Origin: an uncultured Spirochaetota bacterium
GTDB taxonomy: Bacteria > Spirochaetota > UBA4802 > UBA5550
Length of the DNA stretch: 64,000 bases
Assembly: GCA_963732395.1 (NCBI GenBank)
Contig: CAVSZF010000003.1
Span: 114,733 to 178,732, forward strand
Direction of reading: 5' to 3'
Position 1 is the first letter of the stretch, and each line of letters begins with the position of its first letter. The position numbers were made by a program, and so were the translations under genes. Shown here piece by piece: positions 18,892 through 46,469 of this stretch. The notes under the pieces are model-generated. The model was not told the origin of the DNA. It worked only from the letters and a program-made list of their open reading frames with translations, and did not search any database.

Positions 18892-21474
18892 GGCTTTTCC
18901 TCCTTTCCTCGAAAAGGGAGATTAATGCATCATACTGATATCCCTTCGCCAGTACCCGCAGATGCTCTCCGGCTTCAGCGTTTATTTCCGCGGCCCTGCC
19001 TGTCAGTTCAAGGAGCCTTTCCCGGTCAAGGCGTACGATCGCGGACATCATCCCGTCCACGAGGTCATCGGGCAGACCCTTCAATGAATCGGCCGTTACC
19101 GGCGCCCGGATCGCATCCTGTCCCGGCTTCTTCGCGGGGCCCCGGTCTTTGATCGACGATTCCTCCCCTTCCCGGACCCTAATCGACGCGGTGAAAAGCG
19201 AACCTTTCCCGGCCTCGCTTTTCACCGTAACGTCCCCGCCCAGCATTCTGGCGAATTCCCTGCACAGGGCAAGGCCAATCCCGGTGCCGCCCGTTTTCGC
19301 TCCCTTTTCAGTCTGGCTGAAAGGCCGGAACAGGTTCTCCATGTCATCCTCCGCGATACCGGGGCCGGTATCTTCCACATCGATACACAGCGTGATCCCG
19401 CCTGCTTCAATCCCGGACGCGCGCACCCGTAATTCCACCCGCCCCTCCCCGGTGAATTTCACCGCGTTGTCCATAAGGATGTATATGATCTGCCGCAGTT
19501 TCATTTCGTCGGTCTCGATAAATCCCGGCAGGCCGGGGGATTGCTCCACCAGGATATCCATTTTTTTGGCCACGGCCTTCTCCCGGAATATCTTCTCGAT
19601 GTCATTCAGCAGGGCGGGCAGACGGAACGTCGACAGGTCGACCGTCATACGTCCCGCTTCTATCTTCGATATTTCGAGGATGTTGTTGATGAGCGAGAGA
19701 AGATTCTCGCCGCTCCGATTGATCGTTTCCAGACGCTCGATCTGTTCGGGCAGGAGCTGTGGATCGCGCATCATTAATTGCGAAAAACCGAGGATCGCGT
19801 TCATGGGCGTGCGTATTTCGTGGGACATGTTCGACTATAAATACGCTCTTGGCGCGGTTTGCCGCCTCGGCTTTCACCTTTGCCTTCTCCAGCTCGGCGG
19901 TCCTCTCCTTCACCATCTCCTCCAGATGGTCGCGGTGTCTCTTGAGTTCCTCCTCGACACGCATCTGGTCCTCCGCTACACTGAGCAGTATCCGGTGGGA
20001 CTGCGATGCCTCGTCGAGGAGCCGGAGGGTTTCAGCCTGTGTGTCCTGCAAGGCTTTTTCCATCCGCTTCCGTCCGGAAATATCGCGAATGATCCCGACA
20101 GCGGCCCATTCGCCCTTGATCCTTACGCTGGAGAGTGATAATTCCACAGGTATCTCCTGTCGGTCTTTACGAATTGCATATAATTCCAGTGTCGTGCCGA
20201 CTGCGGCGCCCTCACCTGTTTTTTGAAAATGAGGAAAAGCCGATTTATGGGCATCCCAATATCGTTCAGGGGCGATTAATTCATGCAGATTCTTGCCCAC
20301 GGCCTCTTCCCCGGCATATCCCAGAATGCGGTCTGCCGCCCTGTTCCAGAAAGCTATGATTCCCTTACCATCTATTATTATAATGGCGTCATGGGCGGAT
20401 CCGGTGATGGCATTGAGGGTTTCCACTCTTTCGCGTAATTCCTCCTCCGCCTTCTTCCGCTCGGTAATATCGCGGATGATGGCGAGTATGGCAGGCTGGT
20501 CGTTGAAAACAAAGATGTTGGCTGACACAATACCCGTGACAGTCTCCCCTGATTTCTTGCGGAATTGGAATTCCATACCATCCACTCTGCCGATTCCCGA
20601 TAATTCGCCGACAAAGAATTCGCGATCATCTTCACGCGCCCAGATTCCCAGGTCCGATGTCGTTTTTCCCAGGACCTCCGCCGTGGTGTAACCGGACATT
20701 TTTTCAAACCCGGCGTTGACTTCGAATATTTTTCCATCGGTCAGCCGGGTGAGCATGAGGGAATCGGGAGAAGAATGAAACGCCATGGAGAATTTTTCTT
20801 CCTGCGACCGGACATCCATGAGCAGGCGCTTGTTCACCATCAGGGCCAGGCCGTAGGTAATAAGGATAAACAGCATCTGGTAGACGATAACAATAAAAAC
20901 GTCGAAGGTGCTCACTTTATAGAAAATCGTTTGTTTCTGCGGAGATGATAAGGTTCCTCACAACACGGACAAGGCTGACCATGCAGTAGGCGCCAAACAC
21001 AATGCCCACGGTACGGGTCATTGGCCGCATGCCGATATCGACCCTGTAAAATAAAAGCCAGGTGCACTGGAAACTGATTATCATCAGCATGGCGGATAAA
21101 TTTATTATTCTTCCTGTCAGGTTGGGTTGAAAAAAAGTAAACCAGGCCTGCACACCGACAAAGAGGGCCAGAACGAGATAATTATGGACATGCTGGCCTT
21201 TTTTCCCGAGAAAGCGTTCCAGGCCGATATAACCCATAAACAGTCCGGTTACCACCAGTGGATTGAAGAGCGCTATTTCAATCCATTCCGGTATGATCCT
21301 GCCGCTCATGACAGACATCACGAGGGCGGCCGTTTGTAAGGCAGAGCCGGCGACCCAGAAAGCCGTACCGGCAAAGCGGTCCCGGTTATTGCGCCACAGC
21401 AGCGCGAGAATCAGTGTGCAGACGAGACAGGTGAGCAGGTTGCTGGCAAAGACAGTCCCAACGTCAAGGATCAT
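18866..21474 (-). pseudogene. 7TM-PAS-PAS-histidine kinase split into three frames (two frame disruptions)
   Basis: ORF 20917-21474 has six TM helices and starts at MILDVGTVF, ATGA-overlapping the upstream stop. ORF 19602-20915 begins with a seventh TM helix (FDVFIVIVYQMLFILITYGLALMV), then two PAS and a coiled coil ending ...AANRAKSVFI. ORF 18866-19828 starts exactly at the H-box MSHEIRTPMNAILGF, followed by the ATPase domain. The breaks lie at about 20917-20926 and 19829-19832. The intact paralogue reads AANRAKSTFLSSMSHEIRTP. Confidence 0.75.
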
Positions 21475-23246
21475 TTCCCCCCCTCCGCGCTCCCGTATCG
21501 GGGCGGTTCGCCCAGCCGGGCCAGCAGCTCGTTCACCTCGCGCTTGATCTCCAGAATGCGCGTCTCGCGGCCCCGCATGACCCCCTGCCATTGCCGTAAT
21601 TCATGGAGTTTTTCCAGTAATTCCCCTTCAGCCCGTTTGCGTTCGGTAATGTCCTGGAAGGTTCCCATCAGCCTCACCACTTTTCCATCGATTTTCACCG
21701 CCCGTCCTATGGTCCGGGCCCAGAGATGCCTGCCCTTTGCACTGGTGAAAGGCAGATCGAGATCATAGGGCTCCCCCTTCTCCATGGCCTGCTGCATCGC
21801 TTTTTCAAGGACAGACCGTCCCGGGGCATCAAAGAAAAGGACCGCTCTTGACAGATCAAGGCCCCCCTCGCCTTCGGGAATGTCGTGAATCCGGTATGTC
21901 TCGCCCGTCCAGAATACCTCCTTTGTTTCAACGTCAAGCTCCCATCCGCCCACCCTGGCCATCCTGCCGACATCGTTAAGCAGGGTTTCTCTTTTGATCA
22001 ATTCCTCTTCCATTTTCTTTCGGTCGGAAATATCGTAGATTGCCACTATCGCGCACATACGGCCGTCAAGCAATACCGAATCAATGCTGAACAACAACCA
22101 TGCTTTCCTTGTGATACCGCCGGAATTCAGGGTGGTCTCAATCTCGCTATCGCTCACTCCCCTGCCGCTGATGAAAACCTCCCTGATGGCGCCGGCAAGC
22201 GGACAATCGCCGCAATAGGATGAATGCCCGCACCCTTCATCCGTCTCGATGCGATGCACGCAGCCGATGAAATCACCGCATCTTCGCCCTTTCGCCATTT
22301 CGGAATCCGCACCGAACAGGCGTTCCGCCGCCGGATTGGAATGGATGACCCGCTCCTCTTCATCTAAGACCAGTATTCCCACCGGCGATGAAGATATGAT
22401 GGCCTGAAAATTGTTCTTTTCAATCTGTATCGCTCCCAGCGCCTCCCGCCGCTGCCTCGCCGATGTCTCAAGACGGATGAAAGCAAACCATACGCCCCCA
22501 AGCCCCAGAAGCCAGAGAACGGCATGACCCGCGACCAGGACAACCCATCGTGAGCGCATTACTGACAGGAACGGCCCCATGGGGTACGAAATGCTGATTC
22601 CCCCCCTTATTTCTCCCACACGGTATCCCTGGTGGGCATGACACTTGAGGCAGCCCTTCTCGGTTATAAAAGGCCTCATCAACCTCATGGAGGGTTCGCC
22701 ATTGAGGTCGAGTACGACCCTCACTTCCTTGATTCCCTTCTCAAATTCCTTGAGGGCCTCCCTTTCCCAGGGGTCGGGGGCATTTCCGGGATTGAGGGGT
22801 TTGAGACTGGTTATATGTCCGCGCGTCCCGTGCTGTTTCATGGCCATCTCGTTGACCTGCCGGGTCATGTACGCGGGATTCACCAGGGTCAGCCCGCGGC
22901 CGGAGGGGGTCTGTATATCGCGCTCAGGGATATGACGCAGGTAGGGATTCGGCGGGGTTTCCCCGGTTACCGGAACATAGACCCCCCCGTGATCGGTAGC
23001 CCAGCGGCGGTAGAGAACGTCCTTTTCGAAACTTATTCTCAGGCCTTCAAAAGCAAGGGCATTGGTTCCCCGGTAGACCTCGCGCATGTTAAAGATAAGG
23101 CTTAACGCGAGGACTACGGTCCATAGTGCAGTAATGGCCCAGCCGATCAGTCTGATCTGATGCGGTTCGCCTGCGCCTCTGGAGACCATCAGGTCTTCAG
23201 GGAGACAATCCGGAGTGTTTGTGCCTTTTTCTGCCGTTCTTCTCAT
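21471..23246 (-). CDS. membrane sensor: DUF3365/Tll0287-like heme-c domain, TM, 2 PAS, conserved C-terminal module, no known output domain
   Basis: 591 aa. Periplasmic region carries CLKCH (CxxCH) and the FITEKGCLKCHAHQGY context typical of DUF3365. TM VVLVAGHAVLWLLGLGGVWFAFI. The first PAS has a Cys-rich insert. Ends with LHELRQWQGVMRGRETRILEIKREVNELLARLGEPPRYGSAEGGK. Confidence 0.85.
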   Translation of the reverse strand: MRRTAEKGTNTPDCLPEDLMVSRGAGEPHQIRLIGWAITALWTVVLALSLIFNMREVYRGTNALAFEGLRISFEKDVLYRRWATDHGGVYVPVTGETPPNPYLRHIPERDIQTPSGRGLTLVNPAYMTRQVNEMAMKQHGTRGHITSLKPLNPGNAPDPWEREALKEFEKGIKEVRVVLDLNGEPSMRLMRPFITEKGCLKCHAHQGYRVGEIRGGISISYPMGPFLSVMRSRWVVLVAGHAVLWLLGLGGVWFAFIRLETSARQRREALGAIQIEKNNFQAIISSSPVGILVLDEEERVIHSNPAAERLFGADSEMAKGRRCGDFIGCVHRIETDEGCGHSSYCGDCPLAGAIREVFISGRGVSDSEIETTLNSGGITRKAWLLFSIDSVLLDGRMCAIVAIYDISDRKKMEEELIKRETLLNDVGRMARVGGWELDVETKEVFWTGETYRIHDIPEGEGGLDLSRAVLFFDAPGRSVLEKAMQQAMEKGEPYDLDLPFTSAKGRHLWARTIGRAVKIDGKVVRLMGTFQDITERKRAEGELLEKLHELRQWQGVMRGRETRILEIKREVNELLARLGEPPRYGSAEGGK

Positions 23247-23527
23247 TTCTTCCCCTCCACCCTCCCGTACCGGGGCGGATCGCCCGGCCGGGCCAGCAGC
23301 TCGTTCACCCCGCGGCGATCATTACCATTGAATGGAATGTCAACCGGGGGATACGCGATTTCAGGATATTCTGCGGCCAGATGCGCGGCCCGGCACCCGC
23401 GGCCATGAGGGCCGCGGTAACGGCACCTTGTTTCCACGAAAATGCAAATGCCGTCTTCAAGTCCACAGAACCCCTCAATGTATTCAACCGGCCGCCTTGA
23501 AAAATACAAAGACATGACGTCTGTCAC
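23243..23527 (-). other. 94-aa ORF whose last ~20 codons duplicate the 3' end of the neighbouring sensor gene (probable gene remnant)
   Basis: Ends ...VNELLARPGDPPRYGRVEGKK. DNA 23243-23314 is 64/72 identical to 21471-21542, including the ATGA stop/start junction. The rest of the ORF has no recognisable similarity and overlaps the end of 23484-26456. Confidence 0.35.
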
Positions 23528-26456: not shown

Positions 26457-26483
26457 TTTATTGACCTTCCCGGAAAAATTCCA

Positions 26484-29400
26484 TCACCGTTTCTTCCTTT
26501 TATTCAATAACCCGATCAACGCGTCATACTGGTACGATTTCACCATTCCCTTAAGACCTTCGATGGTCCGGTTATTCACTCCGCCGGCGCCGTCGATCAG
26601 TTCCATCAGCCGGTCCTGGTCCAGGTTCAGGGTCGCCTTCAGCATCTCGTCAATCAACTCGTCCGGCAGCTCCCTCAATGATCCCGGCGATAGCGGTTTT
26701 GACGGCCGGGCGGCTTCGCCTGGGGCCGGAGCCGTATCCTCTTCGTACACATACTCGACGCCCAGAAAAGTCTTGAGGAAATCAAAGAGCTCACGATCCT
26801 TGAAGGGCTTCCTCAGATATCCGTCCGCCCCCCAGTTCAGGACCTTCTCCCTGTCCTCCGCAAAGGCGCTGGCCGTGACCGCGATAATGGGTGTTTCTTT
26901 TCCGCCCTTCATATCCTTGATGCGCACTATCGCCTCATAGCCGCTTATCACCGGCATCCTCATGTCCATGAGGATTATATGGGGCGACCAGGACTTGAAT
27001 TTTTCTATTACTTCATTGCCGTCGGCGGCCTCCTCGAGCTGAAACCCCACCGGCGCAAGAAGCTCCCTGATCAGCGCGCGGTTGTCCTCGTTGTCGTCCG
27101 CCACGAGCACCCGGTACGTATCCTGCCCCGGCCGTACGCCCGCAACACGACGTTCTTCCAACCGCTTTTTAACCCGTGAATACTCACCCTTCTGGACAAT
27201 GATACTCACGGTGAAACACGACCCTCTGTCCGGCTCGCTCCTTACGGTGATGTCCCCGCCCATGAGCCGCGCAAACTGCCGGGAAAGAGCCAGGCCGAGG
27301 CCGGTCCCGCCCGCCCTGACGCCTTTCTGCGTCTGAGTGAAGGCCTGGAAGAGGTTCTTGCTGTCTTCCGCGGATATGCCCGGCCCCGTGTCTTCCACTT
27401 CAATGATCAGCCCGATCATCCCCCCCTTTGCCCTGCTCCGGCGCGCTCTCAGGGTTATGACGCCCTCGGTGGTAAACTTCACGGCATTGCCCAGCAGGTT
27501 GATGAGAATCTGACGGAGCTTCCCCTCGTCGGTTATGATGATTCTGGGAAGATTATCCGGCAGATCCACCAGGAACTTCAACTGCCTGGCATCAGTTTTC
27601 AGCTTGAACATCGACGTAATGTCCGTCATCATAGCGATGAGATCGAAGGATTCGGGGTTGAAGCCGACTCGCCCCGCTTCGATTTTCGAGAACTCCAGGA
27701 TGTCGTTGATGAGCGCCAGCAGGTGCTCGCCGCTCCGGTTGACGGTGACAAGCCGTTCCATCTGTTTCGGCGTGAGCCCGGAATCGCGCAATAAAAGCTG
27801 CGAGAAGCCCAGGATCGCGTTCAACGGCGTACGTATCTCGTGTGACATGCTGGAAAGGAACGTGCTCTTGGCGCGGTTGGCGGCCACCGCTTCCTCCCGT
27901 GCCTTTTCCATGTTCTTCTCGGCGGCCTGCCGCACCCTGATCTCCGTTTCAAGTTCCACATTGGTCCTTTCCAGCTCGGCGGTACGCTGCTGCACGAGTT
28001 CCTCGAGTTGAGTGCGATACGATGCCAGCTCCTTCTCGTTCTTCAGCCTTTCCGTGATGTCCTCGTTGACCACTATGGCGCCATCGACCGCGCCGTTCTC
28101 GTCAATGATCGGCGCGGTGAAGTTGAGGATGGTCTTCGTCTTCCCGTCGAAGGCGTCGATCTCAAGCTGTTCGTTGCTGATGGTGACGCCCTCGCGAATC
28201 GTATGCGCCAGCGCCCAGTCTTCCGGCATGATCTCCTCACCCGACGGCACACGCCGGGCCTTGAACACCCCGTATTCTTTCATGGAGACCTTCGGTTCCG
28301 CGCCCCATATCTTCACGCCCGCCGGGTTCCCGCCCTGGAGCGTGCCATGTTTGTCCGCAACCCAGAGGCCGACGGGCAGTATCTCGAAAATCTTCTGCAA
28401 AAGGGATTCGCGCTTTCGCAGCTTTTCCTCCGCCTGCTTGCGGTCTATTATTCCGGCCAGCAGTGCCGCCATTGACACAAGAAATTGTTTCTCTTCATCG
28501 TTCTCCTCGTGATGCGCGGCCAGGTACAGGTTCAGCACGCCCAGTGTCTTCCCCGATTGCAGTAGGGGAACGCAATAATGCCCGTGAGGCCCCATGCCGG
28601 CGTATCTCCTGTCGTGGCGCTCGTCGATTGTATCGCTGAACATGATCTGTCCCGTTGCCGCCGCGCGGCCGCAGAGGCATACGCCGGAAGGGACCTTCGC
28701 GCACATCTCCAGCAGGAGCGGATCGAGATTCCGGCTGGCATAAAGAGAAAGGGAATCGGCCTCGCTATCTGCTAAAAATACGGCCCCCTGTTTCTCGATG
28801 GAAAGCCATGGAATCTCCATCAAAATATCCAGGGCCAGACGTACACTTTCCGACAGGGTGTGGTCACCCAGGGATATCCGAAGCAGTTTATTGAAGGATT
28901 CCTGTTCCTGGTAGCTTTTCAGGAGTTTGCTCTCCGCCAGTTTCTGGTCTTCAATGACGCTGAGAAGAACCCGGCGCGACTGATCGGCCGCTTCAAGGAG
29001 CCGGAGTGTTTCCGCCTGGGCCGAGTGGGCCTGTTCTTCGGCCAGTTTACGATCGGTTATGTCCTGAAAGGATCCGCTGATTCTTGCAATTGCATCATTT
29101 TCCCTCGTGATTCTGGCAACTGCACGTACCCAGCGTGTATTTCCTTTCGCGGTAATGACTTCCCATTCCTGATCATACGGTTCACCATATTCCATGGCCC
29201 TCGCAACCGCTTTCTCGGCCATCGGCCTGGATGAAGGGGCGATAAAATCCAGACCCTCGGGCACCTTCGGCTCACCATGCGACATGTCGATTTCAAGGAT
29301 GCGGAAGGTCTCTTCTGTCCATGTTTGAGTCAGGTTTTCTACATCGAATTCCCATCCCCCGATTTTACCCGTTTTTTCGGCTTCATTCAATAAATACTGG

Positions 29401-30191
29401 CTCCTTCGTAAATCCTCTTCCGCCTGCTTGCGCTCGGTGATGTCCATCCCCACGCCGTTGATCTCAACCAGCTCTCCATTGGCCCCCCACAGGTTTGAGG
29501 AGTCCCAGGTGATTGTTTTGACAGCGCCGTTCTTTCCGAGCAGGTTCATTTCGTACCCATGTACATCACCCGACTCAAAGGCCCGCATAATCTCCTTGAC
29601 CTGTTCCCCGAGTTCACCGGGATAAAAGAGGTCCCACCAGTTGCGGCCTATAACGTCCTCCGGGGTATAGCCGGTAACCGCTGTCACGTATGAATTCACA
29701 AAAAGCGTGGTGCCGTCCGGCGTTAGTTTGCAGATGAGACTGGGTGCGGTTTCAACCAGGGTGCGGTATTTTTCCTCGCTCTTGCGCAGCGCCATCTCCG
29801 ATTTTTTCCGCTCCACGGCGTATATGATTGACCGCGACAGCAGCTCGGAGCCGATTGTGCCTTTAACCAGGTAATCCTCGGCGCCCATTTCAATGGACGA
29901 CACCCCGATCCCCTCGTCATCCAGACCCGTAAGCACGATGACGGGAATCATTCCCTGCGTGGTTTCCACGATGCTTTCGAGCGTGGCGATACCGCTCGAA
30001 TCGGAGAGGTTGAGGTCGAGGATCACGACGTCATAGTGCCGGTCTTTTATACGCGATAGCGCGTCCGCAAGGTTTTCCGCAACGGCGCATTCACCATCAC
30101 CCAGGCCGCCCTCTTTCAGCAGCTCCCGGATGAGGCGCGCGTCGCCGGGATTGTCTTCGACGAGAAGGATGTCGATCACCCGTGTTTTCAT
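26484..30191 (-). CDS. hybrid sensor kinase REC-PAS-PAS-GAF-PAS-HisKA-HATPase-REC with C-terminal helical module
   Basis: 1235 aa. Receiver [10 protein letters not shown]...VILDLNLSDSSG. GAF-like ...HYCVPLLQSGKTLGVLNLYL. H-box MSHEIRTPLNAILGF. ATPase VEDTGPGIS...GTGLGLALS. Second receiver VLVADDNEDN...ILMDMRMPVISG. Tail ...KSYQYDALIGLLNKRKKR. Confidence 0.92.
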   Translation of the reverse strand: MKTRVIDILLVEDNPGDARLIRELLKEGGLGDGECAVAENLADALSRIKDRHYDVVILDLNLSDSSGIATLESIVETTQGMIPVIVLTGLDDEGIGVSSIEMGAEDYLVKGTIGSELLSRSIIYAVERKKSEMALRKSEEKYRTLVETAPSLICKLTPDGTTLFVNSYVTAVTGYTPEDVIGRNWWDLFYPGELGEQVKEIMRAFESGDVHGYEMNLLGKNGAVKTITWDSSNLWGANGELVEINGVGMDITERKQAEEDLRRSQYLLNEAEKTGKIGGWEFDVENLTQTWTEETFRILEIDMSHGEPKVPEGLDFIAPSSRPMAEKAVARAMEYGEPYDQEWEVITAKGNTRWVRAVARITRENDAIARISGSFQDITDRKLAEEQAHSAQAETLRLLEAADQSRRVLLSVIEDQKLAESKLLKSYQEQESFNKLLRISLGDHTLSESVRLALDILMEIPWLSIEKQGAVFLADSEADSLSLYASRNLDPLLLEMCAKVPSGVCLCGRAAATGQIMFSDTIDERHDRRYAGMGPHGHYCVPLLQSGKTLGVLNLYLAAHHEENDEEKQFLVSMAALLAGIIDRKQAEEKLRKRESLLQKIFEILPVGLWVADKHGTLQGGNPAGVKIWGAEPKVSMKEYGVFKARRVPSGEEIMPEDWALAHTIREGVTISNEQLEIDAFDGKTKTILNFTAPIIDENGAVDGAIVVNEDITERLKNEKELASYRTQLEELVQQRTAELERTNVELETEIRVRQAAEKNMEKAREEAVAANRAKSTFLSSMSHEIRTPLNAILGFSQLLLRDSGLTPKQMERLVTVNRSGEHLLALINDILEFSKIEAGRVGFNPESFDLIAMMTDITSMFKLKTDARQLKFLVDLPDNLPRIIITDEGKLRQILINLLGNAVKFTTEGVITLRARRSRAKGGMIGLIIEVEDTGPGISAEDSKNLFQAFTQTQKGVRAGGTGLGLALSRQFARLMGGDITVRSEPDRGSCFTVSIIVQKGEYSRVKKRLEERRVAGVRPGQDTYRVLVADDNEDNRALIRELLAPVGFQLEEAADGNEVIEKFKSWSPHIILMDMRMPVISGYEAIVRIKDMKGGKETPIIAVTASAFAEDREKVLNWGADGYLRKPFKDRELFDFLKTFLGVEYVYEEDTAPAPGEAARPSKPLSPGSLRELPDELIDEMLKATLNLDQDRLMELIDGAGGVNNRTIEGLKGMVKSYQYDALIGLLNKRKKR

Positions 30192-30192
30192 G

Positions 30193-30639
30193 TTATTTCT
30201 CCCTGTCGGGAAGCTTCACTATGGTGAGCCAGAAGGACTCGATCGACCTCACCACGTCGATAAAGCGGTTCAGATCAAGGGGCTTCACGATGTAGCAGTT
30301 CGCGTGGAGATCGTAGGTTTTCACCACGTCGGTCTCCGCGTCGGAGGTGGTGAGGATCACCACGGGGATCCGCTTGAGGTCGTCGTTCTCCTTGATGTCG
30401 GCCAGCACCTCGCGGCCGTCCTTTTTCGGAAGGTTCAGGTCGAGGAGGATCAGGTCGGGCCTCTCTACGTCGGCGAATTTACCCTTCTTGAGAAGAAAAT
30501 CCATCGCCTCGACCCCGTCCCTCGCCACGTAGAGGGTGTTCTTCACCTTGCCTTCTTTCAGGGACTCCAGTACGAGGCGGACGTCCCCCTCGCTGTCCTC
30601 CACGAGGAGTATGTCGATCGGTTTGATTTTTTCATTCAT
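30193..30639 (-). CDS. single-domain response regulator (Rcp1/phytochrome-associated type)
   Basis: 148 aa. ILLVEDSEGD...ILLDLNLPKKDG...CYIVKP. Its stop is 1 nt from the start of the downstream kinase gene. Confidence 0.9.
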   Translation of the reverse strand: MNEKIKPIDILLVEDSEGDVRLVLESLKEGKVKNTLYVARDGVEAMDFLLKKGKFADVERPDLILLDLNLPKKDGREVLADIKENDDLKRIPVVILTTSDAETDVVKTYDLHANCYIVKPLDLNRFIDVVRSIESFWLTIVKLPDREK

Positions 30640-30658
30640 GGAGTTCCTCCTTAATTAT

Positions 30659-30745
30659 GCCCCCCCCCAACCCCCCGGAGGGGGGCTGAGCCAGGCCTTT
30701 ACATCGACCTATGCTACCCCTGCCCCCCTCCGGGGGGTCGGGGGC
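30659..30745. repeat. GC-rich palindromic intergenic repeat, copy 1
   Basis: Left arm GCCCCCCCCCAACCCCCCGGAGGGGGGC, ~35-nt spacer, right arm GCCCCCCTCCGGGGGGTCGGGGGC (reverse complement of the left arm). Same architecture as the copies at 34081, 42711 and 49544. Confidence 0.8.
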
Positions 30746-33700: not shown

Positions 33701-33940
33701 GATCGAGGCGAAGGAAAGAATGCGCGCATTAAACCAGAACAGGGCCCATTCTCTGGTGGGGCTTATTATCGACATCCCCTCAAAAAACGCGAGCAGGCAC
33801 ACCATGAGCGACACCCACATATAGACGCCGGCCCCGGGGGTGGAATCACGGTGCCGCCGGGAATACCATGCGATATATCCCATGACGGCCACCGTAACCA
33901 TGATGGAAATGAAGTATGCCGTGTGGTACCAGTGCATCAT
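30709..33940 (-). pseudogene. HisKA_7TM-type sensor histidine kinase with a frameshift inside the ATP-binding domain
   Basis: ORF 30896-33940 has the 7TM N-terminus MMHWYHTAYFISIMVT...YRYRLFE, a second membrane-bounded region, 2 PAS and H-box ASHDLQEPLR. It breaks at ...[13 protein letters not shown]. The remainder ([55 protein letters not shown]) continues in another frame as ORF 30709-30990. The shift lies at the A3/T3 run 30942-30944. Confidence 0.75.
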
Positions 33941-34160: not shown

Positions 34161-34195
34161 CAAGGGGCCGGTAACAGGAGGCTTTTTTAGATATT

Positions 34196-35440
34196 TCATG
34201 CCCCGCCGTACCTCGCCGGTTTGCCCGCCTCTTCAAGAAGATCATTGACTTCTTTTTTAAGACCAATCACCCGGCCCTCGCAGTCCAGCGTAACATTATA
34301 CCATCGCCGAAGCTCTTTCAACTGGCTCTGAAGCACCTTCTCGGTTGCCATTAGCTCTTTGTTTGAAGACTCAAGTTCCTCCCTTTGCTTCTGCAGTTCC
34401 ACGAGCGCAGCTTCCCTCTCGGACACTGCCCGCTTGCGTTCCGTGACGATCGCGCCCATAATCAAACCGACAATACAATTGACGATCATCAGCAGTTCCA
34501 GTTCGCCCAGCCGTGCGAGGTCGAATCGAAACAACCACAGCGCCAGCACCACCCCGGAATTCAACGCCAGGATTGCCGCGCTGACCCCCTTGAAGCCGTG
34601 CTGCAGAGCAATCCAGATGAGCGGCAGCGTAATAAGATAGATGGGCCGAAAATCATCCAGGACTCTTACCCCAAAGACCCAGTAGAGCGTCAAAGCAATG
34701 CTGAACGCCTGCCCGATGGCAGAGAGCGTGGGACGCGGAAATGACCGTCGTGCGGGCAGCCTGACCGGCTGTCCTTCCGCAAACCGTTTCAGGCCCGGCA
34801 TCACATAGATAAGCAGAAAGGGGGTGACGGTCAAGACGCCGATCGTTTCACCAATCCACCAGTGAAAAATCGCGCGGAGGACTTCGCTGCGCGGCATTTC
34901 GCTGCTCAATGCGGAACTCGAAACAGAAAGTACGGCAAGAAGCGCTGAAACAAATACGGCAGCGGCAACCAGCCAGATCACATCCCGCACTTTTCGCAGT
35001 TGCCAATCGAACCGAATTCGGTTGCGCAGGAATGCGGCGGAAGCGCTATAAATCAAAGATATAATAAATGCCCATAAAAAAAGCAACCAAGGGGGCTGAG
35101 GCATGCGATAAATGAACATACTGCTAATGAATAAGGCAATCATCACCGCGGGCGCGAATCTCACGCCAAATACCAGCAGCAGCGCGTATGTGACCCCGGC
35201 AGGCGCATACCAGGCGACAACACCTTTGAATAATTCAAACTGCTGCGAAGCAAAGTCGAGACTGATGTACACGCAGAGGTATGCGGCGATAATAAGAGCG
35301 GCGCGCAACAGCGGGCGCGGGTTGCGGTGCAATGTGGCGGCACCTGGCGGGACAGCGGGTTTCTTGATGGATTTCATGAATCCGATCGATTCCGCGGATG
35401 CACCCGGAGATTGTGTGACCTTCTCATCCGTCATATTCAT
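34196..35440 (-). CDS. MASE1-like membrane sensor with coiled coil and conserved C-terminal module, no known output domain
   Basis: 414 aa. About 8 TM helices with MASE1-like signatures (WYAPAGVTYALLLVFG, WWIGETIGVLTVTPFLL), then a coiled coil. Ends LKELRRWYNVTLDCEGRVIGLKKEVNDLLEEAGKPARYGGA. Confidence 0.8.
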   Translation of the reverse strand: MNMTDEKVTQSPGASAESIGFMKSIKKPAVPPGAATLHRNPRPLLRAALIIAAYLCVYISLDFASQQFELFKGVVAWYAPAGVTYALLLVFGVRFAPAVMIALFISSMFIYRMPQPPWLLFLWAFIISLIYSASAAFLRNRIRFDWQLRKVRDVIWLVAAAVFVSALLAVLSVSSSALSSEMPRSEVLRAIFHWWIGETIGVLTVTPFLLIYVMPGLKRFAEGQPVRLPARRSFPRPTLSAIGQAFSIALTLYWVFGVRVLDDFRPIYLITLPLIWIALQHGFKGVSAAILALNSGVVLALWLFRFDLARLGELELLMIVNCIVGLIMGAIVTERKRAVSEREAALVELQKQREELESSNKELMATEKVLQSQLKELRRWYNVTLDCEGRVIGLKKEVNDLLEEAGKPARYGGA

Positions 35441-35498
35441 TTCCAGCTTTTTTTCTTTTTCCTATGCTTGTAACTACTCAACCATTCAATTATGCCAT

Positions 35499-35560
35499 AG
35501 AGGCACAGAGTTATTTCCGGTTTTCTTTATTCTCCATCAATCCTTACTCTCCGTGCCTCC
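35499..35560 (-). other. intergenic stem-loop between two C-module sensor genes
   Basis: On the transcribed (minus) strand, GGAGGCACGGAG (35560-35549) can pair with CTCTGTGCCTCT (35510-35499). That is 12 bp including two G-U pairs, with a 38-nt loop. Confidence 0.3.
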
Positions 35561-35585
35561 GTGTCCATGTTCTTTTTCCCCCGCC

Positions 35586-36959
35586 TTACGTATCGAAGTA
35601 TTTTCCCGGCTTTCCCATTTCATGAAGCAGGCTGTTAACTTCCTTTTTAATTTCAATGACCCGGTCCTCGCGGTCAAGCGTGGCGTTATACCATCGCTGA
35701 AGCTCTTTTAACTTCTCCCGCACCTCATCATGTGTCCGCCTCTGTTCTAACGCGATGCCGATGCTTGCGCCCAGGCTTTCAAAGAAGCGGATCATTTCGA
35801 GCGTAAAGCAATCGCGCCGGCGGTCGTTGAATTGTATCAGGCCGATGATTTTGTCGGCCACCCGCAGGGGGATCAGGGCCACGGATTCATACCCTTCGCC
35901 GTTACAGTGGTTGCGGGTGCGCGCCTGGCGGTCTTCTTCGGTCGTCGTTGCCAGCAGCTCCGTGGTGCTGTTGGTCCAGAAGCTGCCGAATTCGGTGAAA
36001 AACGGCAGTTTGGTGTCGAATCGTCCCATTAGAACGTTCCCGCACATGCATTCGAGCACCGGGTTGCCATCGGAATCGCGCACGACGTCGCCCGCTGCGT
36101 CACGCTCGCACAGGTACTGCTCGGCCTTCACGAAATCATCGGGGAACCCGTTGGTCACCATGTAGGGGAAGTCGTCGCCCTCCTTCAGGCGGATACCCAC
36201 GGCCTCCAAACCCGTTCTCGTTTTTACCAGCTTAAAGATGTCATGGATCAAATCACTTTTTTCAAAATCATTGAGCAATTCCAGCACTTCACGCGCGAGC
36301 CGGTCCCGCTCGTCCGCCTGCTTGCGCATGGAGATCTCTTCCATAAGCTGTGCGGTCCTCTCCTCAACCAGCTCTTCCAGCCGCTCGTTCATCGTCTTCA
36401 ACTCTTCCTGCGCCTCCAGCAATTCCGTATTTCGAATTACCGCCGCTTCATAGGTGGAAATAAGCATGCCGAGCATCTGCTGCTGGTCCGCGGTGATGAA
36501 GCGTTTTTTCCCCCCGAAATGGATCTCCACCCCCACGCGCACGCGTTCATTATTCCTCAATGCCAAATTGGCGATAATATTGGCGATATTCGAAAGCAGG
36601 TAATCGTCGTTATAGGGCTTGCTGATAAAATTGTCCGCGCCGCAGGCCAGTCCTTCCAGCACGTCCCCCGTGCTGCTGAGTGAGGTCAGCAGGACCACGG
36701 GGATGTTGTTTGTTTTCTCATCCGATTTTATTTTACTGCAGAGCTCGAAGCCGCTCATACCCGGCATGACGATATCGGTTATGACCAGCGTGGGTAAGCG
36801 CGTGCCTATCTGGTCAAGCGCCTGCATGCCGTTGCCGGCAACCATTACGGAATAGTTTTGCTGTTCCAGCAAAAACATGAGTTTTTCAGCCTGCGTGGGG
36901 CTGTCCTCCACGATCAGGATCGTGACATTTTTATTTGATGGATTTGTTGAATCGGTCAT
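35586..36959 (-). CDS. response regulator REC-coiled coil-GAF with conserved C-terminal module (occupies the WspR-like output position)
   Basis: 457 aa. Receiver ILIVEDSPTQ...VITDIVMPGMSG...NFISKP. GAF-like block ...SVALIPLRVADKIIGLIQFNDRR. Ends LKELQRWYNATLDREDRVIEIKKEVNSLLHEMGKPGKYFDT. Its start is 13 nt after the cheB stop. Confidence 0.85.
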   Translation of the reverse strand: MTDSTNPSNKNVTILIVEDSPTQAEKLMFLLEQQNYSVMVAGNGMQALDQIGTRLPTLVITDIVMPGMSGFELCSKIKSDEKTNNIPVVLLTSLSSTGDVLEGLACGADNFISKPYNDDYLLSNIANIIANLALRNNERVRVGVEIHFGGKKRFITADQQQMLGMLISTYEAAVIRNTELLEAQEELKTMNERLEELVEERTAQLMEEISMRKQADERDRLAREVLELLNDFEKSDLIHDIFKLVKTRTGLEAVGIRLKEGDDFPYMVTNGFPDDFVKAEQYLCERDAAGDVVRDSDGNPVLECMCGNVLMGRFDTKLPFFTEFGSFWTNSTTELLATTTEEDRQARTRNHCNGEGYESVALIPLRVADKIIGLIQFNDRRRDCFTLEMIRFFESLGASIGIALEQRRTHDEVREKLKELQRWYNATLDREDRVIEIKKEVNSLLHEMGKPGKYFDT

Positions 36960-36972
36960 ATGCGACCTCCAT

Positions 36973-38016: not shown

Positions 38017-38083
38017 ATCCGTATACTCCCTTTACTATTATTTATCACAACTTTAAACTCAACCCTTGTGCCCTCCCCCCCCC

Positions 38084-40375: not shown

Positions 40376-40380
40376 CGTAC

Positions 40381-42015: not shown

Positions 42016-42692
42016 GACAGATTCCTCCCGTTAAAGTTAGAACCATGCAAAGCGTCCGGTTCTAATTCTTCGTGTACGACAATTTTTTCATCACCCAGTA
42101 TCTTGTCTCCATCGAGGATTATTATGCCCTCCGCGGTAACGCCTTTCACGTACTCCGCGCCGATCCCGGTTACGGTGGGAAGCGGCGGCTGAATTGTATC
42201 ACGCGTGATTCGACGCGTGCCAATGATAGAATCCGCGAGAACCCCAAACTCCATCTCCTCATTTCTAATGATGATTATTTTATTAAGGTCGCCCAGTCCC
42301 TTTTCAGGAAGATTGAAGAAATTCTTGAGATCGATGACGGAAAGGATCTTCCCGCGCACGTTGACGATGCCGAGAACGAAGGAAGGCGTGCACGGTAGGG
42401 GCGTAAGGTCTTTCAGGGGATAAACTTCGCGGACGAACGCCGATTCCATGCCGTATATTTCCCGCGACAATTGGAATTCGATGATTTCAATGAAATTCTG
42501 TACTGACTCGGCCTGTTCTGGTTCGCGCGCAAGGGCTCTGGCGCGTTTTTTAAGGATGGAACGCGTTTCATCGGAGGAGGGCTGTGCGCCCCGCTCAAGT
42601 ACCGCCCGGGTATTTTCAATACGGCGGTGCACCTCGCTCCAGTCGTTTCCTGCTTCTTTCTCATGCGTTGGCATCTTTTTATCGTTATTCAT
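42012..42692 (-). CDS. cheW: CheW-like coupling protein
   Basis: ORF track 42012-42854. The first 54 codons are read from the GC-rich repeat. The preferred start is ATG 42692 (MNNDKKMPT...), preceded by GAGGAG. CheW core FQLSREIYGMESAFVREV...VLGIVNVRGKILSVIDL. Confidence 0.85.
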   Translation of the reverse strand: MNNDKKMPTHEKEAGNDWSEVHRRIENTRAVLERGAQPSSDETRSILKKRARALAREPEQAESVQNFIEIIEFQLSREIYGMESAFVREVYPLKDLTPLPCTPSFVLGIVNVRGKILSVIDLKNFFNLPEKGLGDLNKIIIIRNEEMEFGVLADSIIGTRRITRDTIQPPLPTVTGIGAEYVKGVTAEGIIILDGDKILGDEKIVVHEELEPDALHGSNFNGRNLS

Positions 42693-42710
42693 GGTCACTA
42701 TTCTCCTCGG

Positions 42711-42776
42711 GCCCCCCACCCCCCCCGAAGGGGGCGTACTATTTTCGTGCATACCCTTAACCCCCTCCGGGGGTGG
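42711..42776. repeat. GC-rich palindromic intergenic repeat, copy 3 (inside the che operon)
   Basis: GCCCCCCACCCCCCCCGAAGGGGGC (42711-42735), spacer GTACTATTTTCGTGCATACCCTTAA, then CCCCCTCCGGGGGTGG (42761-42776). Lies between the cheR stop and the cheW start. Confidence 0.75.
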
Positions 42777-42850
42777 CAGTCGGAGACTGCCGGGGGCGCA
42801 CCTCTCTGTGCCTCTGTGTCTCTGTGGCAAAACAGTTGAGCAGTTCCTTC

Positions 42851-44347
42851 TCACGACAGCGCTCCTATCGACATTGTGGCCTGTATGATTTCCCTGAACC
42901 TGCCTGCCGTCATCCCCTCGGATTCGGGCAGGATTTCCTCCTGACTGCAGGCGCTCATAAGCGAAAGGGCGTTATCAAAGCTTTTTTGTGCCGTTTTGGC
43001 GTCTCCCCGCCGCAAGGCCAGGTTGCCCATGGTGAAATAAGCCAGCACGTGATTCGGGTCGAGATAGAGCGTTCGCTTGAGCGAGGAGATCGCTTCATCG
43101 TCGCTGTTCTGTTCCTGGAGGATGACGGCCCGAAGATAATGCAGGCCGGGATTGAGCTTGTCGTCGACGATCGTGGTATCGCACAGAACAAGCGCCTCTG
43201 CAAGATCGCCCCTGTCGGCAAGCGACCGGATTGTTCTTGTACTGGAACTCCGCCTTTCCCCGCTTTCGGTTGTGTCCGTCCCCATCGTATCATCTTCAAC
43301 CTCTCGAATATCCGAAAGCTCTTGAATTACGGGGTGACTCGGTTCAGGTCGCGTATCTTCCGGGGTTGTTTCATTGTCGGTATAGGGGTTCGGCAGGATC
43401 TGTATTTCGGACGCCATGGCGGGTTCATCGATCGGATGGATCATCACGTCAGAAGGAAGAATACCTTCGAAATGAAATACCGCCGACGGCATTGATCCCG
43501 TGAGTTCTTTCCGGTATACGATCGCACCGGGAAAATTGACTGAAGAGAATTGCGGAAAGAGCTGCTGGGAGAGCTCGCTGGAGCTTACTATCAGCCAGCC
43601 TCCATCGGTGAGGGAGCGGTAAAGCCCCTGCGCGATCTCCTGCGCTCGGCCGGACGCGAAATACATAAGCACGTTGCGGCAGAAAATTATATCCATGGCT
43701 CCCGTATTGTTTATAGGTGAGGGATAGATATCTTCGGCGAGATTCAGGTAGGAAAACGCGACCATCTTCTTAATATTGGGAACTATTTCCATCCTGCCGG
43801 GGTCCCTGCGGTGAAAATATTTTTCCTTGAGCCAGGAGGGGGAGTTGCGGAACGACCACTCGCCGTAAATGCCGGCCTTCGCCTTCCTGAGGATCCGTGG
43901 ATTGATATCGGTCGCCAGTATGGTGATGTTCCAGTGTTCCAGGTCCGGGACCGCTCTCTGAAGCGCGATCGCTATCGAGTACGGCTCCTCGCCGGTGGAA
44001 CATCCGGCGCTCCAGATTCTCAGCAGTCTGCCGCTTCCTTCCCGCGTGCGGACAAGTTCCGGAAGGATGTGCTCCACGAGGGCTTCGAAAACCTGCGGCT
44101 CGCGCCAGAAATAGGTTTCGCTGATCGTGAGATGGCTCGCCAGTATCTCGACCTGCTCCCTGGATACTGGCGTCGATGTCACCCACCGGATGAAGGATTC
44201 AGCATCGGTGTATCCGAACTCACGCGCGGCCGAACCTGCATTCCGCTCAAGATCGTTCCAGCGCTCGCGGGGAAAGTGAAGGGCCGTCCGGGACTCGATA
44301 AATTCGCTGAATTGAGACAGCAGGCTATTCCCCAGGGATTCCATCAA
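42851..44347 (-). CDS. cheR: CheR-type protein-glutamate O-methyltransferase with C-terminal TPR region (WspC-like)
   Basis: 498 aa. IWSAGCSTGEEPYSIA and IFCRNVLMYF motifs. C-terminal TPR-like repeats (ALVLCDTTIVDDKLNPGLHYLRAVILQEQ..., LKRTLYLDPNHVLAYFTMGNLAL). Confidence 0.9.
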   Translation of the reverse strand: MMESLGNSLLSQFSEFIESRTALHFPRERWNDLERNAGSAAREFGYTDAESFIRWVTSTPVSREQVEILASHLTISETYFWREPQVFEALVEHILPELVRTREGSGRLLRIWSAGCSTGEEPYSIAIALQRAVPDLEHWNITILATDINPRILRKAKAGIYGEWSFRNSPSWLKEKYFHRRDPGRMEIVPNIKKMVAFSYLNLAEDIYPSPINNTGAMDIIFCRNVLMYFASGRAQEIAQGLYRSLTDGGWLIVSSSELSQQLFPQFSSVNFPGAIVYRKELTGSMPSAVFHFEGILPSDVMIHPIDEPAMASEIQILPNPYTDNETTPEDTRPEPSHPVIQELSDIREVEDDTMGTDTTESGERRSSSTRTIRSLADRGDLAEALVLCDTTIVDDKLNPGLHYLRAVILQEQNSDDEAISSLKRTLYLDPNHVLAYFTMGNLALRRGDAKTAQKSFDNALSLMSACSQEEILPESEGMTAGRFREIIQATMSIGALS

Positions 44348-44868
44348 TCCGTGCCTCCCGAAAGGGCATTGTCCAGCATCCGTTCTTCATCGAGAGAAAG
44401 AAAGGTATCGATGTCGTAGATGAGGATGAGATTCTCTTCTGTCTTGACCACGCCGCGGAGGTATTCAACGAAAGGAAGGGACTGGCCGCCGCTTTCCAGC
44501 TCATGGCCCGCAATCTCGCGAATCTCGGAAACGTAATCCACCACCAGCGCCACGCTGCGCCGTTGTGTCCGCGCGATGATGAAATGGTCTTCAAGCTTGA
44601 TATCACGCGCCGGCAACCGCAGCCGCTCGCGGATGTTCACCACGGGGATAATCTTCCCCTGCACATTTATCGCTCCCTGGATGATCGCGGGAGCGTTCGG
44701 CAGGGGCGTGATCTCAACGGCGCGGACCACCCGCTCGACCGCGGAGAGAGACAGGGCGTAGCGCGGCTCATCCAGGGCAAACACCACGATCCGGTTACGG
44801 TCATCATCGTTGAGATCGCTTGGCAGTACTGTCGTTTCCGTTTCATGTTCAGATGGCATTGCAGTCAC
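44344..44868 (-). CDS. cheW: CheW-like coupling protein
   Basis: 174 aa. VVFALDEPRYALSLSAVERVV...IIQGAINVQGKIIPVVNI. Its stop overlaps the cheR start by 4 nt. Confidence 0.88.
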   Translation of the reverse strand: MTAMPSEHETETTVLPSDLNDDDRNRIVVFALDEPRYALSLSAVERVVRAVEITPLPNAPAIIQGAINVQGKIIPVVNIRERLRLPARDIKLEDHFIIARTQRRSVALVVDYVSEIREIAGHELESGGQSLPFVEYLRGVVKTEENLILIYDIDTFLSLDEERMLDNALSGGTD

Positions 44869-44940
44869 TCTCCATTGTCATACTTCCAACCGGGGACCCT
44901 TTCCTGCCTTTACTATAGCCACATCCACGGGAATAATTTT

Positions 44941-45144
44941 TTATTGTTGATTAATAACCGCTTTCTTTATGTACCGCAGACTTGTGCTGTTGTTCGACAG
45001 GCTCACCATGAGCGACACCCACATATAGACGCCGGACCCGGGGGTGGAATCACGGTGCCGCCGGGAATACCATGCGATATATCCCATGACGGCGGCCGTA
45101 ACCATGATGGAAATGAAGTATGCCGTGTGGTACCAGTTCATCAT
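44941..45144 (-). pseudogene. 5' fragment of a HisKA_7TM kinase gene (first ~47 codons only)
   Basis: MMNWYHTAYFISIMVTAAVMGYIAWYSRRHRDSTPGSGVYMWVSLMV then unrelated sequence and a stop. DNA 45004-45144 matches 33800-33940 (start of the full-length kinase) at 137/141 positions. Confidence 0.8.
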
Positions 45145-46469
45145 CCTGCCGTGCCTTCATACCGTGGCGGCCTGCCTTCCCCCGCCAGCAATTCGTTCAC
45201 CTCGCCCTTGAGTTCGATAATGCGCGTCTCGCGACCAAGCGTGGCCTCATGCCATCGGCGAAGCTCGTTGATCTGATCTTTGAGCTGATTTTCAATATTC
45301 TTGAGCCCGGTAATTTCTTTTGAAGAGCAGATTGCGGATACGACTTCCCCTTTCTCGTTTTTGATCGGGGTAATGGTCGTTAAATAATATCGATCGCCGT
45401 CTTCCCGGGGAACGCGCGCCTCGATGGTTTTTTTCATTCCCGTGTTGACGACCTGGCTGAGGGCCGCGAAGCGCGTATCCGCCTCCTCCCGGGGAAAGAT
45501 ATCCCATAATGTAGCGCCGATGATTTCCTCGACCTTCCTTCCGACCCCCTTTGCGAAGGCATCATTGACATAAAGGTAGTGACCGTCACGCTCGAATGCA
45601 AAGATCGGGTCCGATGATTCGTCAAGAAGTATGCGGTGCTTCTCCTCGCTTTCCCTCAGCGCGTTCTCCGCCTGTTTTCGTTTCGTTATATCCTCGATAA
45701 TACAGACCACATCATGTTCCGTTTCATCATCCGATATCAGCATCGCGGAATTCACGCTTACATCAATGAAGGACCCGTCCTTCCGGACCATTTCACATTC
45801 CTTTTCGTAGGAAAAACCCTTGCTTACGACATCGTGAAAAAATTCGGCGGCCATTTCAAGATAATCCGGATGGATTATACCCGGCAAGGGAGAACCGACC
45901 ATCTCCCCTTTCCCGTATCCGAGATATTGATCGATCCGGCTGTTGCAGTCAACAATCACGCCGTCCCGACTCACTATAAGAAACAGATTGGGGGCGGTTT
46001 CATATATTGAACGGAACTTATTCTCGCTTCTCTTCAGCAACCTCTCGGCACTAACCCTTCTGTTCTTTTCTTCCCTCTCCTCGAGGGCGCGTTTCACCGC
46101 GGGAACAAGTCTCGAGAGATTTTGCTTCAGCACATAATCGGTGGCGCCATTTTTGACCGCCTCAATCGCCACATCCTCCCCCATGGTCCCGGTTACAAAT
46201 ATGAAGGGGATTATACTCTCCTCATTCTTCACGATGTCCAGGGCTTCAAGCCCGTCAAATGAAGGGAGTTTGTAGTCGGCCAGTATCAGGTCGGGCTTGA
46301 AGCCTCGGAGTTCCCTTATGAAATCGTCTCTGGTCTGAACGCGCTTCGATCTGATGGTAAAACCGGCTTTCCCCAGCTCGATAGTGTTCAACTCCGCGTC
46401 GGTGTCGACATCTTCAAGGAAGAGTATTTTTATTGTTTCATTCATATCGGCAACCCTGTCATCAGCCAT
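45141..46469 (-). CDS. response regulator REC-PAS-PAS with conserved C-terminal module, no known output domain
   Basis: 442 aa. Receiver ILFLEDVDTD...ILADYKLPSFDG...DYVLKQ, then two PAS. Ends INELRRWHEATLGRETRIIELKGEVNELLAGEGRPPRYEGTAG. Its stop is ATGA-fused to the 7TM fragment. Confidence 0.85.
   Translation of the reverse strand: MADDRVADMNETIKILFLEDVDTDAELNTIELGKAGFTIRSKRVQTRDDFIRELRGFKPDLILADYKLPSFDGLEALDIVKNEESIIPFIFVTGTMGEDVAIEAVKNGATDYVLKQNLSRLVPAVKRALEEREEKNRRVSAERLLKRSENKFRSIYETAPNLFLIVSRDGVIVDCNSRIDQYLGYGKGEMVGSPLPGIIHPDYLEMAAEFFHDVVSKGFSYEKECEMVRKDGSFIDVSVNSAMLISDDETEHDVVCIIEDITKRKQAENALRESEEKHRILLDESSDPIFAFERDGHYLYVNDAFAKGVGRKVEEIIGATLWDIFPREEADTRFAALSQVVNTGMKKTIEARVPREDGDRYYLTTITPIKNEKGEVVSAICSSKEITGLKNIENQLKDQINELRRWHEATLGRETRIIELKGEVNELLAGEGRPPRYEGTAG

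Follow-up and report, generated by a model that had tools for sequence, protein, structure and literature searches.

How does a bacterial sensor protein that carries no output domain pass its signal on? The question is raised by a stretch of 64,000 nucleotides (nt) from an uncultured Spirochaetota bacterium (GenBank assembly GCA_963732395.1, contig CAVSZF010000003.1, positions 114,733 to 178,732; hereafter the window), in which translation of four minus-strand open reading frames (ORFs), those of proteins A, B, C and D, revealed a block of about 45 residues common to all four C-termini. We refer to this block as the tail. The genes that carry it are paired, reciprocally, directionally and over a broad phylogenetic range, with genes that carry a second conserved helical segment, here called motif 2, and we consider it probable that the tail serves as a helix for docking and signalling, coupling accessory sensors in trans to the signalling helix of a histidine kinase.

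The tail in the window

A hidden Markov model (HMM) built from the four tails and searched against the six-frame translation of the window recovered those four, with E-values of 7e-29 to 4e-27, and one partial copy, with nothing credible beyond these; 14 of about 43 alignment columns were invariant. The initial annotation of this DNA had described one block ending four full-length proteins together with a partial fifth copy, and both observations were confirmed. Its coordinates agree with the re-derived ones to a few bases (Table 1), and the fifth copy, which reads RRGVNELLARPGDPPRYGRVEGKK followed by a stop codon, proved to be a real remnant by six-frame translation and DNA comparison (HMM match at 23252-23314 on the minus strand, E 2e-5; about 90% identical in DNA to the 3′ end of gene A).

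The domain content of the four proteins was also as first described, with heme-c DUF3365 plus PAS, MASE1, REC plus GAF, and REC plus PAS as input parts and no output domain. By Pfam, protein A contains a Tll0287-like domain (the former DUF3365) with a CLKCH heme-c motif, followed by PAS; B contains MASE1, C contains REC and GAF, and D contains REC and two PAS domains, with NCBIfam in agreement. No HisKA, HATPase, GGDEF, EAL, HD or HTH domain was found in A–D in the Pfam scan, with consistent results from NCBIfam, nor did Pfam detect a kinase, cyclase, phosphodiesterase or DNA-binding domain of any kind in them. The DNA of the tails of B, C and D shows many synonymous differences, and yet the encoded peptide is retained, which places the selection at the level of the protein. 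An exact-sequence search found no record of protein A.

A widespread family in place of an output domain

For the tail itself, hmmscan against Pfam-A 2025 and NCBIfam 2026 at E<=1 returned only input-domain families, with no family covering the tail and sub-threshold chance matches only. A sequence search of the PDB (2026) gave nothing with the four-tail profile and marginal matches only with a broader profile. The openly searchable literature, queried by motif strings, keywords and concepts, contained no description of the tail or of its pairing. The tail is thus without a name in Pfam 2025, NCBIfam 2026 and PDB 2026, and the earlier suggestion that it may be an undescribed module stands.

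The tail is also far more than a local set of paralogs. Word-indexed protein searches, with either the tail profile or the cis-fusion fragment described below, returned a handful of short fragments only; when the four-tail profile was run in full with HMMER over 1.84 billion cluster representatives, 6,370 matched at E<=1e-3, of which 2,089 reached E<=1e-10. The end of the tail lies no more than 25 residues from the C-terminus in 163 of 170 proteins (96%), with an overall median of 7, in keeping with its proposed location at the extreme C-terminus in place of an output domain. The consensus reads …DITERK.AE..L.EQL.ELRRWH.(A/V)TLGRE.R(I/V)LELK.EVNELL…G.PPRY.SAE. Some 19 of its positions are nearly invariant (Q, E, L, R, W, R, E, R, L, K, E, V, N, L, L, G, P, R and Y), and this conservation is far above that of a generic coiled coil.

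Among 99 full-length tail proteins, Pfam partners were PAS (88), REC (32), GAF (15) and PocR (5), with further cases of CHASE, CHASE3/5, dCache, Tll0287-like, CBS and 5TMR-LYT. No output domain was present among the 25 most frequent of the 27 Pfam families matched, and there was one exception, a protein of 1247 residues (P0072) in which HMA, E1-E2 and HAD, the domains of a CopA-type Cu+ P-type ATPase, are joined in one chain with ETR1_N, PAS and a tail. ETR1_N is an ethylene-receptor-like copper domain, and the whole protein resembles a transporter reporting to a kinase. Source annotations of tail proteins read only "PAS domain S-box protein".

For the analysis of gene neighbourhoods, we scanned one genome per GTDB species with a query of six close sequences, a sample biased to canonical tails, and obtained 313 confirmed tail copies, from which 79 loci were kept. 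These loci come from Chloroflexota, Gallionellaceae and other Betaproteobacteria, Gammaproteobacteria, Verrucomicrobiota, Kiritimatiellia, Acidobacteriota (including Holophaga foetida DSM 6591), Planctomycetota, Actinomycetota, Desulfobacterota, Spirochaetia, Cloacimonadota and others.

Reciprocal pairing with a motif in the downstream gene

The gene directly 3′ of the tail gene on the same strand is usually large in the 79 loci, and its start often overlaps the tail stop codon by 4-8 nt. Pfam assigned HATPase_c to 32, HisKA to 31, HisKA_2 to 3 and KaiC to 5 of 54 such downstream neighbours. Upon inspection of these neighbours, we found motif 2, E..RLL.EA..SR.ALLS(V/L)(V/L)EDQ..AE..L, which matches nothing in Pfam or the PDB. 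In the forward direction, an HMM of motif 2 gave 70 same-strand matches on the downstream side of the tail, spread over 65 of the 79 loci, versus 2 on the upstream side, with about 0.49 Mb searched on each; where at least 5 kb of downstream sequence was available, motif 2 was present in 52 of 55 tail-selected loci. The reverse test used an independent collection of 80 metagenome loci chosen solely by the pattern ALLS[VLI][VL]EDQ. A same-strand tail lay upstream in 31 of the 34 loci with at least 5 kb of upstream sequence and in 46 of the 51 with at least 3 kb, and no opposite-strand tail was found in these motif-2-selected loci. The median distance from the end of the tail to the start of motif 2 was 1.48 kb. 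The initial annotation had raised the idea of a partner-docking module, and this reciprocal, directional pairing with a conserved helix in the downstream kinase supports it specifically.

Clustering of all neighbouring ORFs in 123 related loci revealed no other recurrent family except a single-domain REC protein and KaiB (11 loci). The REC protein (about 148 residues, of the LLVEDNPDD… type) occurs in 47 of the 123, typically about 2.4 kb downstream. A KaiC gene follows the tail gene directly in about 10% of related loci (L034, L040, L042, L050 and L051), with KaiB nearby and motif 2 further downstream, which hints at a link between tail loci and KaiC-based timing or stress systems.

Helix register, fusions, relays and variant classes

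Both helices stand at characteristic distances from the domains around them. The tail tryptophan lies exactly 22 residues past the PAS "DIT" motif in 75 of 77 cases, and the serine of motif 2 (in SR.ALL) lies 22, 29 or 36 residues past "DIT", in heptad steps. On its other side, the end of motif 2 is separated from the H-box by 27-29 or 34-36 residues, again one heptad apart, in 40 of the 75 proteins in which the H-box was located, and the remaining proteins have one to three PAS domains in between. Because of these "DIT" and H-box spacings, we regard the tail and motif 2 as phase-locked PAS exit helices; the tail helix terminates, and the motif-2 helix continues into DHp or into the next PAS domain.

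In a few proteins, the two segments occur together. At locus L029, a PAS domain, a tail, a 21-residue linker, motif 2, HisKA, HATPase and REC follow one another in one polypeptide, and two further proteins (P0096 and P0047) have a tail, a linker of about 20-30 residues, motif 2 and PAS. Internal tails were also apparent at L039, L070, L078 and L079; these turned out to be wrong-frame ORFs in GC-rich loci, leaving L029 as the only true fusion among them. In the opposite order, 7 of 155 ORFs with motif 2 also end in a tail (motif 2…PAS…tail), a relay arrangement, and at L075 three relay genes stand in a chain with the kinase at its end.

Variant tails adjoin variant motifs. In Gallionella-like loci, a divergent tail (QLDELQRF..V.GRELRM.EL) comes about 30 residues ahead of a motif 2 that diverges as well (ER.ALLFMLEDL), so that ELQRF…GRELRM stands beside ALLFMLEDL in operons that also contain the canonical pair. 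At L008 and L035, this divergent pair comes directly after a transmembrane (TM) segment within a protein bearing a canonical C-terminal tail, and at L003 its two halves lie in separate reading frames, with a stop codon or frameshift falling exactly at the linker. A third tail class, ELRMFNE.MVGRE.RIIELKEE.NRL…GR..PYPP.WE, was seen at the C-terminus of proteins that contain motif 2 (L051 at 10381-10494, L080 from 11927 and L152 from 5880), and no downstream partner motif was detected at these three loci.

Predicted structure and simple dimerisation as a possible alternative

For the last PAS domain and tail of protein D, AlphaFold2 (AF2), run with a 31-row alignment, predicted a PAS fold followed by an unbroken helix of 44 residues and a non-helical end of 12 residues, with a mean predicted local distance difference test score of 93.5 for the model. 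Heptad analysis of the tail placed L, L, W, (T/L), I, L, V and L at a/d positions, with the register disturbed near the invariant G-R-E-x-R, where an arginine occupies a "d" position. In the PDB, the best Foldseek matches of the AF2 model were LOV-kinase chimeras and short LOV proteins that lack an effector and have a protruding Jα helix.

These results bring up the strongest alternative, in which the tail is a mere homodimerisation coiled coil that caps stand-alone sensors, as Jα does in short LOV proteins, and its linkage to motif 2 reflects co-inheritance of a cassette or coupling through PAS-PAS contacts or phosphotransfer. The Foldseek neighbours, with their Jα coiled coils, and the heptad pattern of the tail both speak for it, as does a marginal match of the second half of the tail to the C-terminal helix of PpSB-LOV (2yon, E 0.019; 7a6p, E 0.42). 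Generic dimerisation helices, however, do not keep some 19 near-invariant residues across phyla. In addition, the flanking sensor domains vary freely while the two helices remain paired and ordered, the cis fusions retain a connector of about 20 residues, and variant tails adjoin variant motif 2. We therefore judge simple dimerisation to be unlikely, though it is the alternative that deserves most attention.

Direct association of the tail with motif 2 is the most economical explanation, because it accounts at once for the gene pairing, the translational coupling, the heptad-based placement, the cis fusions, the relays and the class-matched variants. Several observations weigh against it. The AF2 prediction for the cis fragment of P0096, made from a shallow, unpaired alignment, gave two confident helices joined by a disordered linker with a predicted template modelling score (pTM) of 0.36, and at that score the model does not inform on how the helices pack; the lack of confident packing would also fit simple dimerisation. 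Both locus samples came from exact-pattern scans, which biases them to canonical sequences, and about 5-10% of loci are without a partner. Mutual information across 119 tail/motif-2 pairs was dominated by one co-change in Gallionella-like genomes, tail I24T with ALLS to VMLG in motif 2, which fits an interface but may represent one event in one clade. Lastly, within the window itself, B, C and D are not adjacent to a gene with motif 2, the nearest being 5-16 kb downstream, and the seven-transmembrane (7TM) kinase beside B has no motif 2 when the window is searched with the motif-2 HMM.

Proposed mechanism and the remaining alternatives

From the features described above, we infer physical contact, a bundle geometry, a direction of signalling and a wiring in the window. 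In the proposed mechanism, the tail leaves the last sensory domain in fixed register, with its tryptophan 22 residues after the PAS "DIT", runs as a single helix of about 44 residues and ends in a short G-x-P-P-R-Y-x-S cap, driving no enzymatic output in cis. It would instead associate in trans with motif 2 of a co-transcribed histidine kinase, where motif 2 lies in the coiled coil that feeds the DHp domain or the next PAS domain. Two tails and two motif-2 helices, probably as a dimer-of-dimers bundle, would then make a junction similar to HAMP or an S-helix, through which the state of the accessory sensor (a ligand-bound PAS or GAF domain, a phosphorylated REC domain, a MASE1 membrane signal or the redox state of heme) would be added to the kinase's own input. 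Relay proteins with both motif 2 and a tail could chain several sensor modules non-covalently. Within the window, A would plug into the kinase encoded directly downstream, and C, B and perhaps D into the hybrid kinase at 26484-30191.

In kind, the tail would be a coiled-coil signalling element or a case of accessory-sensor coupling, and there is a substantial chance that it represents a distinct and general mechanism. For the wider proposal, that tail and motif 2 form a widespread and hitherto unrecognised plug and socket for the ordered, class-specific, non-covalent assembly of sensors onto histidine kinases and sometimes KaiC systems, with receiver-tail proteins gating other kinases, we see the chances as evenly balanced.

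Alternatively, the tail and motif 2 could be recognised separately by a common third component; a small protein, the single-domain REC protein or a nucleotide second messenger (c-di-GMP, for example) would qualify. The tail is rich in Arg, Trp and Glu (RRW…GRE.R), and the REC gene in 47 of 123 loci and KaiB/KaiC in about 10% would be candidates. Yet the clustering gave no uncharacterised conserved neighbour, most loci are without the REC gene, and no known ligand-binding motif was matched in Pfam or NCBIfam; a third component would also leave the strict order of tail then motif 2 and the relay chains unexplained. We consider this explanation improbable.

Still less probable is that the tail is a relic of DHp helix 1, its H-box SHE.R degenerated to GRE.R, at the end of truncated pseudokinases. 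The resemblance between EL..W/F…GRE.R and EL..F….SHELR is superficial, as the spacing from W to R is one residue longer than that from F to H, there is no histidine at the equivalent position, and the tail has no match to the Pfam HisKA families at E<=1. Comparison of the tail by hhalign with 67 DHp segments from the same loci gave a probability of 0.2%, on which we rejected a pseudo-DHp origin; probabilities were 0.6% for tail against motif 2 and 2.3% for motif 2 against DHp, with no detectable relation in either case. The least probable reading, that the block matters chiefly as DNA, at which sensor genes ahead of kinases are exchanged by recombination, can point to the ~70-nt, ~90% identical direct repeat around gene A and to tandem arrays of tail genes, but the peptide is kept while synonymous sites have diverged among B, C and D and across phyla, and any recombination of paralogous tails is more readily understood as a side effect.

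Comparison with known systems

Short LOV proteins have no fused effector and form parallel dimers with coaxial coiled-coil extensions (PMC4589677). Like PpSB1-LOV, PpSB2-LOV, PF5-LOV and MrLOVe, tail proteins combine a PAS core with a single long C-terminal helix and no effector. The flavin-binding signature of LOV domains is a cysteine motif of the NCRFLQ type, which tail proteins do not have, being absent from the PAS sequences of A and D. Moreover, the tail is longer, has its own signature (ELRRW…GRE.R.LELK.EVN.LL…G.PPRY), also follows GAF and MASE1, and has a genomic partner in motif 2. The C-terminal helix of Pseudomonas putida short LOV proteins, EERVRELEAEVAELRRQQGQ, has a weak similarity to E.RV.ELK.EVNELL…G in the second half of the tail (the 2yon and 7a6p matches given above), and the two may be distantly related.

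The S-helix is a coiled coil of about 40 residues between two domains of one polypeptide, with an "ERT" signature at positions c-d-e of its central heptad (Anantharaman, Balaji & Aravind 2006, PMC1592074). The tail shares its length and a conserved arginine at a core "d" position of the central heptad, and motif 2 shares its position between domains, directly upstream of DHp or PAS. Nevertheless, the tail has GRE.R, a terminal position and a non-helical PPRY cap, and motif 2 has SR.ALLS..EDQ. With neither the ERT signature nor the inter-domain position (median 7 residues from the C-terminus), we rejected the tail as a member of the S-helix family.

HAMP domains normally come directly after a TM segment and consist of helix, connector and helix, forming a four-helix bundle in dimers. 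The cis forms of the tail and motif 2 are similar in having a helix, a connector of about 20-30 residues and a second helix, between PAS and DHp (L029) or after a TM segment (L008 and L035). Their helices are about twice as long, however, and the module is normally split over two polypeptides; the Pfam HAMP profile matched neither the tail proteins nor the cis fusion of L029.

In polyketide synthases and non-ribosomal peptide synthetases (PKS/NRPS), docking domains pair the C-terminal helix of an upstream protein with a cognate helix of the protein encoded next. By analogy, the tail would be the C-terminal helix and motif 2 the cognate helix encoded downstream, and both systems include variants and can link more than two proteins in a chain. 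Family and process are unrelated, motif 2 is usually internal rather than N-terminal, and binding of the tail to motif 2 is proposed from the genomic evidence.

The spreading of sensing and kinase functions over co-encoded polypeptides appears as a concept in two papers (PMC3591291, PMC7656254). Tail proteins and their kinases share with such split histidine kinases and accessory sensors the separation of these functions. In the split kinases that are generally known, the division falls between the DHp and catalytic parts, in contrast to the arrangement here, where whole sensor modules stand apart from an intact kinase and two dedicated conserved helices mark the split. Overall, membership of the tail in the short LOV, S-helix, HAMP or PKS/NRPS docking families is not supported; short LOV proteins are its closest characterised relatives in form, and HAMP/S-helix junctions and PKS/NRPS docking domains the closest in logic.

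Genomic context and putative wiring in the window

The signalling genes of this region form a long minus-strand run (Table 1), in which a tail with a same-strand motif 2 downstream is clear for A and loose for B, C and D. For A, motif 2 lies 1.4 kb downstream of the tail and the TGA stop codon of gene A overlaps the ATG of the kinase gene (ATGA), which is the canonical pair arrangement.

Table 1. Coordinates of tails, motif 2 copies and associated signalling genes in the window
Feature	Coordinates	Strand	Evidence and remarks
Tail of protein A (Tll0287-like heme-c + PAS + PAS)	21474..21614	-	Gene 21471-23246; translation, HMM
Tail of protein B (MASE1 membrane sensor)	34199..34327	-	Gene 34196-35440; translation, HMM
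Tail of protein C (REC + GAF)	35589..35717	-	Gene 35586-36959; translation, HMM
Tail of protein D (REC + PAS + PAS)	45144..45278	-	Gene 45141-46469; translation, HMM
Remnant of tail 3′ end, reads …GVNELLARPGDPPRYGRVEGKK and stop	23246..23314	-	HMM match 23252-23314, E 2e-5; 22 residues, upstream of gene A
Motif 2 (…AETLRLLEAADQSRRVLLSVIEDQKLAE…) in hybrid kinase	28914..29036	-	Motif-2 HMM, E 5e-12; canonical
Motif 2 (…AETLRLLDEASQSHRILLSVAEDQMRVEE…) in kinase directly downstream of gene A	19938..20051	-	Motif-2 HMM, E 6e-7
Hybrid kinase, REC-PAS-PAS-motif2-GAF-PAS-HisKA-HATPase-REC	26484..30191	-	Domain scan
Membrane sensor kinase downstream of A	18866..21474	-	Three overlapping or abutting ORFs
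Single-domain REC	30193..30639	-	Kind recurring at tail/motif-2 pairs elsewhere

The kinase downstream of A is divided among an ORF with the TM segments (20917-21474), one with PAS-PAS-motif 2 (19602-20915) and one with HisKA-HATPase (18866-19828). These three ORFs, read in different frames, imply two frameshifts in the gene, and it is either a pseudogene or affected by assembly indels. The 7TM-receptor kinase (ORF 30896-33940) has a further frameshift inside its HATPase domain (~30640-31000, minus strand), with the half bearing the G2 box in another frame. That three frameshifts in kinase genes fall inside 15 kb is a sign of sequencing error or decay.

Upstream of gene A, the stop codon of the tail remnant overlaps the ATG of gene A. 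A direct repeat of about 70 nt (~90% DNA identity), corresponding to the 3′ end of the tail, brackets this gene on the minus strand (23235-23330 and 21460-21555), and both copies terminate in …AAATGA, overlapping the ATG of the following gene. The repeat suggests that a sensor gene ahead of the kinase gene was inserted or replaced when paralogous tails recombined. Directly upstream of the remnant is a CheB-CheR fusion (23484-26456, minus strand) with a STNEELQSTNEELQSTNEE coiled-coil repeat and PAS_10 plus PAS, and without a kinase.

The genes for B and C lie 5-8 kb and that for D 16 kb upstream of the hybrid kinase on the same strand, and the stretch between D and the hybrid kinase region holds a che-like cluster, a single REC gene and the 7TM kinase, in which motif 2 is absent. 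The che-like cluster (36973-44868, minus strand) is complete, stands between D and C, and encodes CheW, CheR-TPR, CheW, an MCP (4HB+HAMP), CheA-REC and CheB. Gene C is the first after CheB, at the place where che-like clusters usually encode an output regulator, and gene D is the third in an HK-REC-D operon. A second single-domain REC of the ~148-residue type is found at 46489-46932. The initial annotation had named the adjacent 7TM kinases as candidates for a test of pairing; the 7TM kinase next to B lacks motif 2, and the likelier partners are the hybrid kinase and the frameshifted kinase after A. Our hypothesis is that B, C and perhaps D are wired to the hybrid kinase. If protein C, as a REC-GAF-tail protein, does plug into that kinase as proposed, the che-like cluster would thereby gain an output into a two-component kinase.

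Implications

No mechanism has been assigned to thousands of bacterial PAS, GAF, REC or MASE1 proteins "without output domain", and about a third of these are response regulators without a known output. If the tail docks onto a kinase helix, these output-less sensors would be trans-acting inputs, and many multi-sensor kinases would be non-covalent assemblies with a wiring that is legible from sequence. One phosphorelay or chemosensory cluster would also be able to act directly on another kinase, a route represented here by protein C after CheB. For annotation, the tail and motif 2 would constitute two new domain families, and synthetic biology would take an interest in them as a short and portable pair of helices with which sensors can be attached to kinases.

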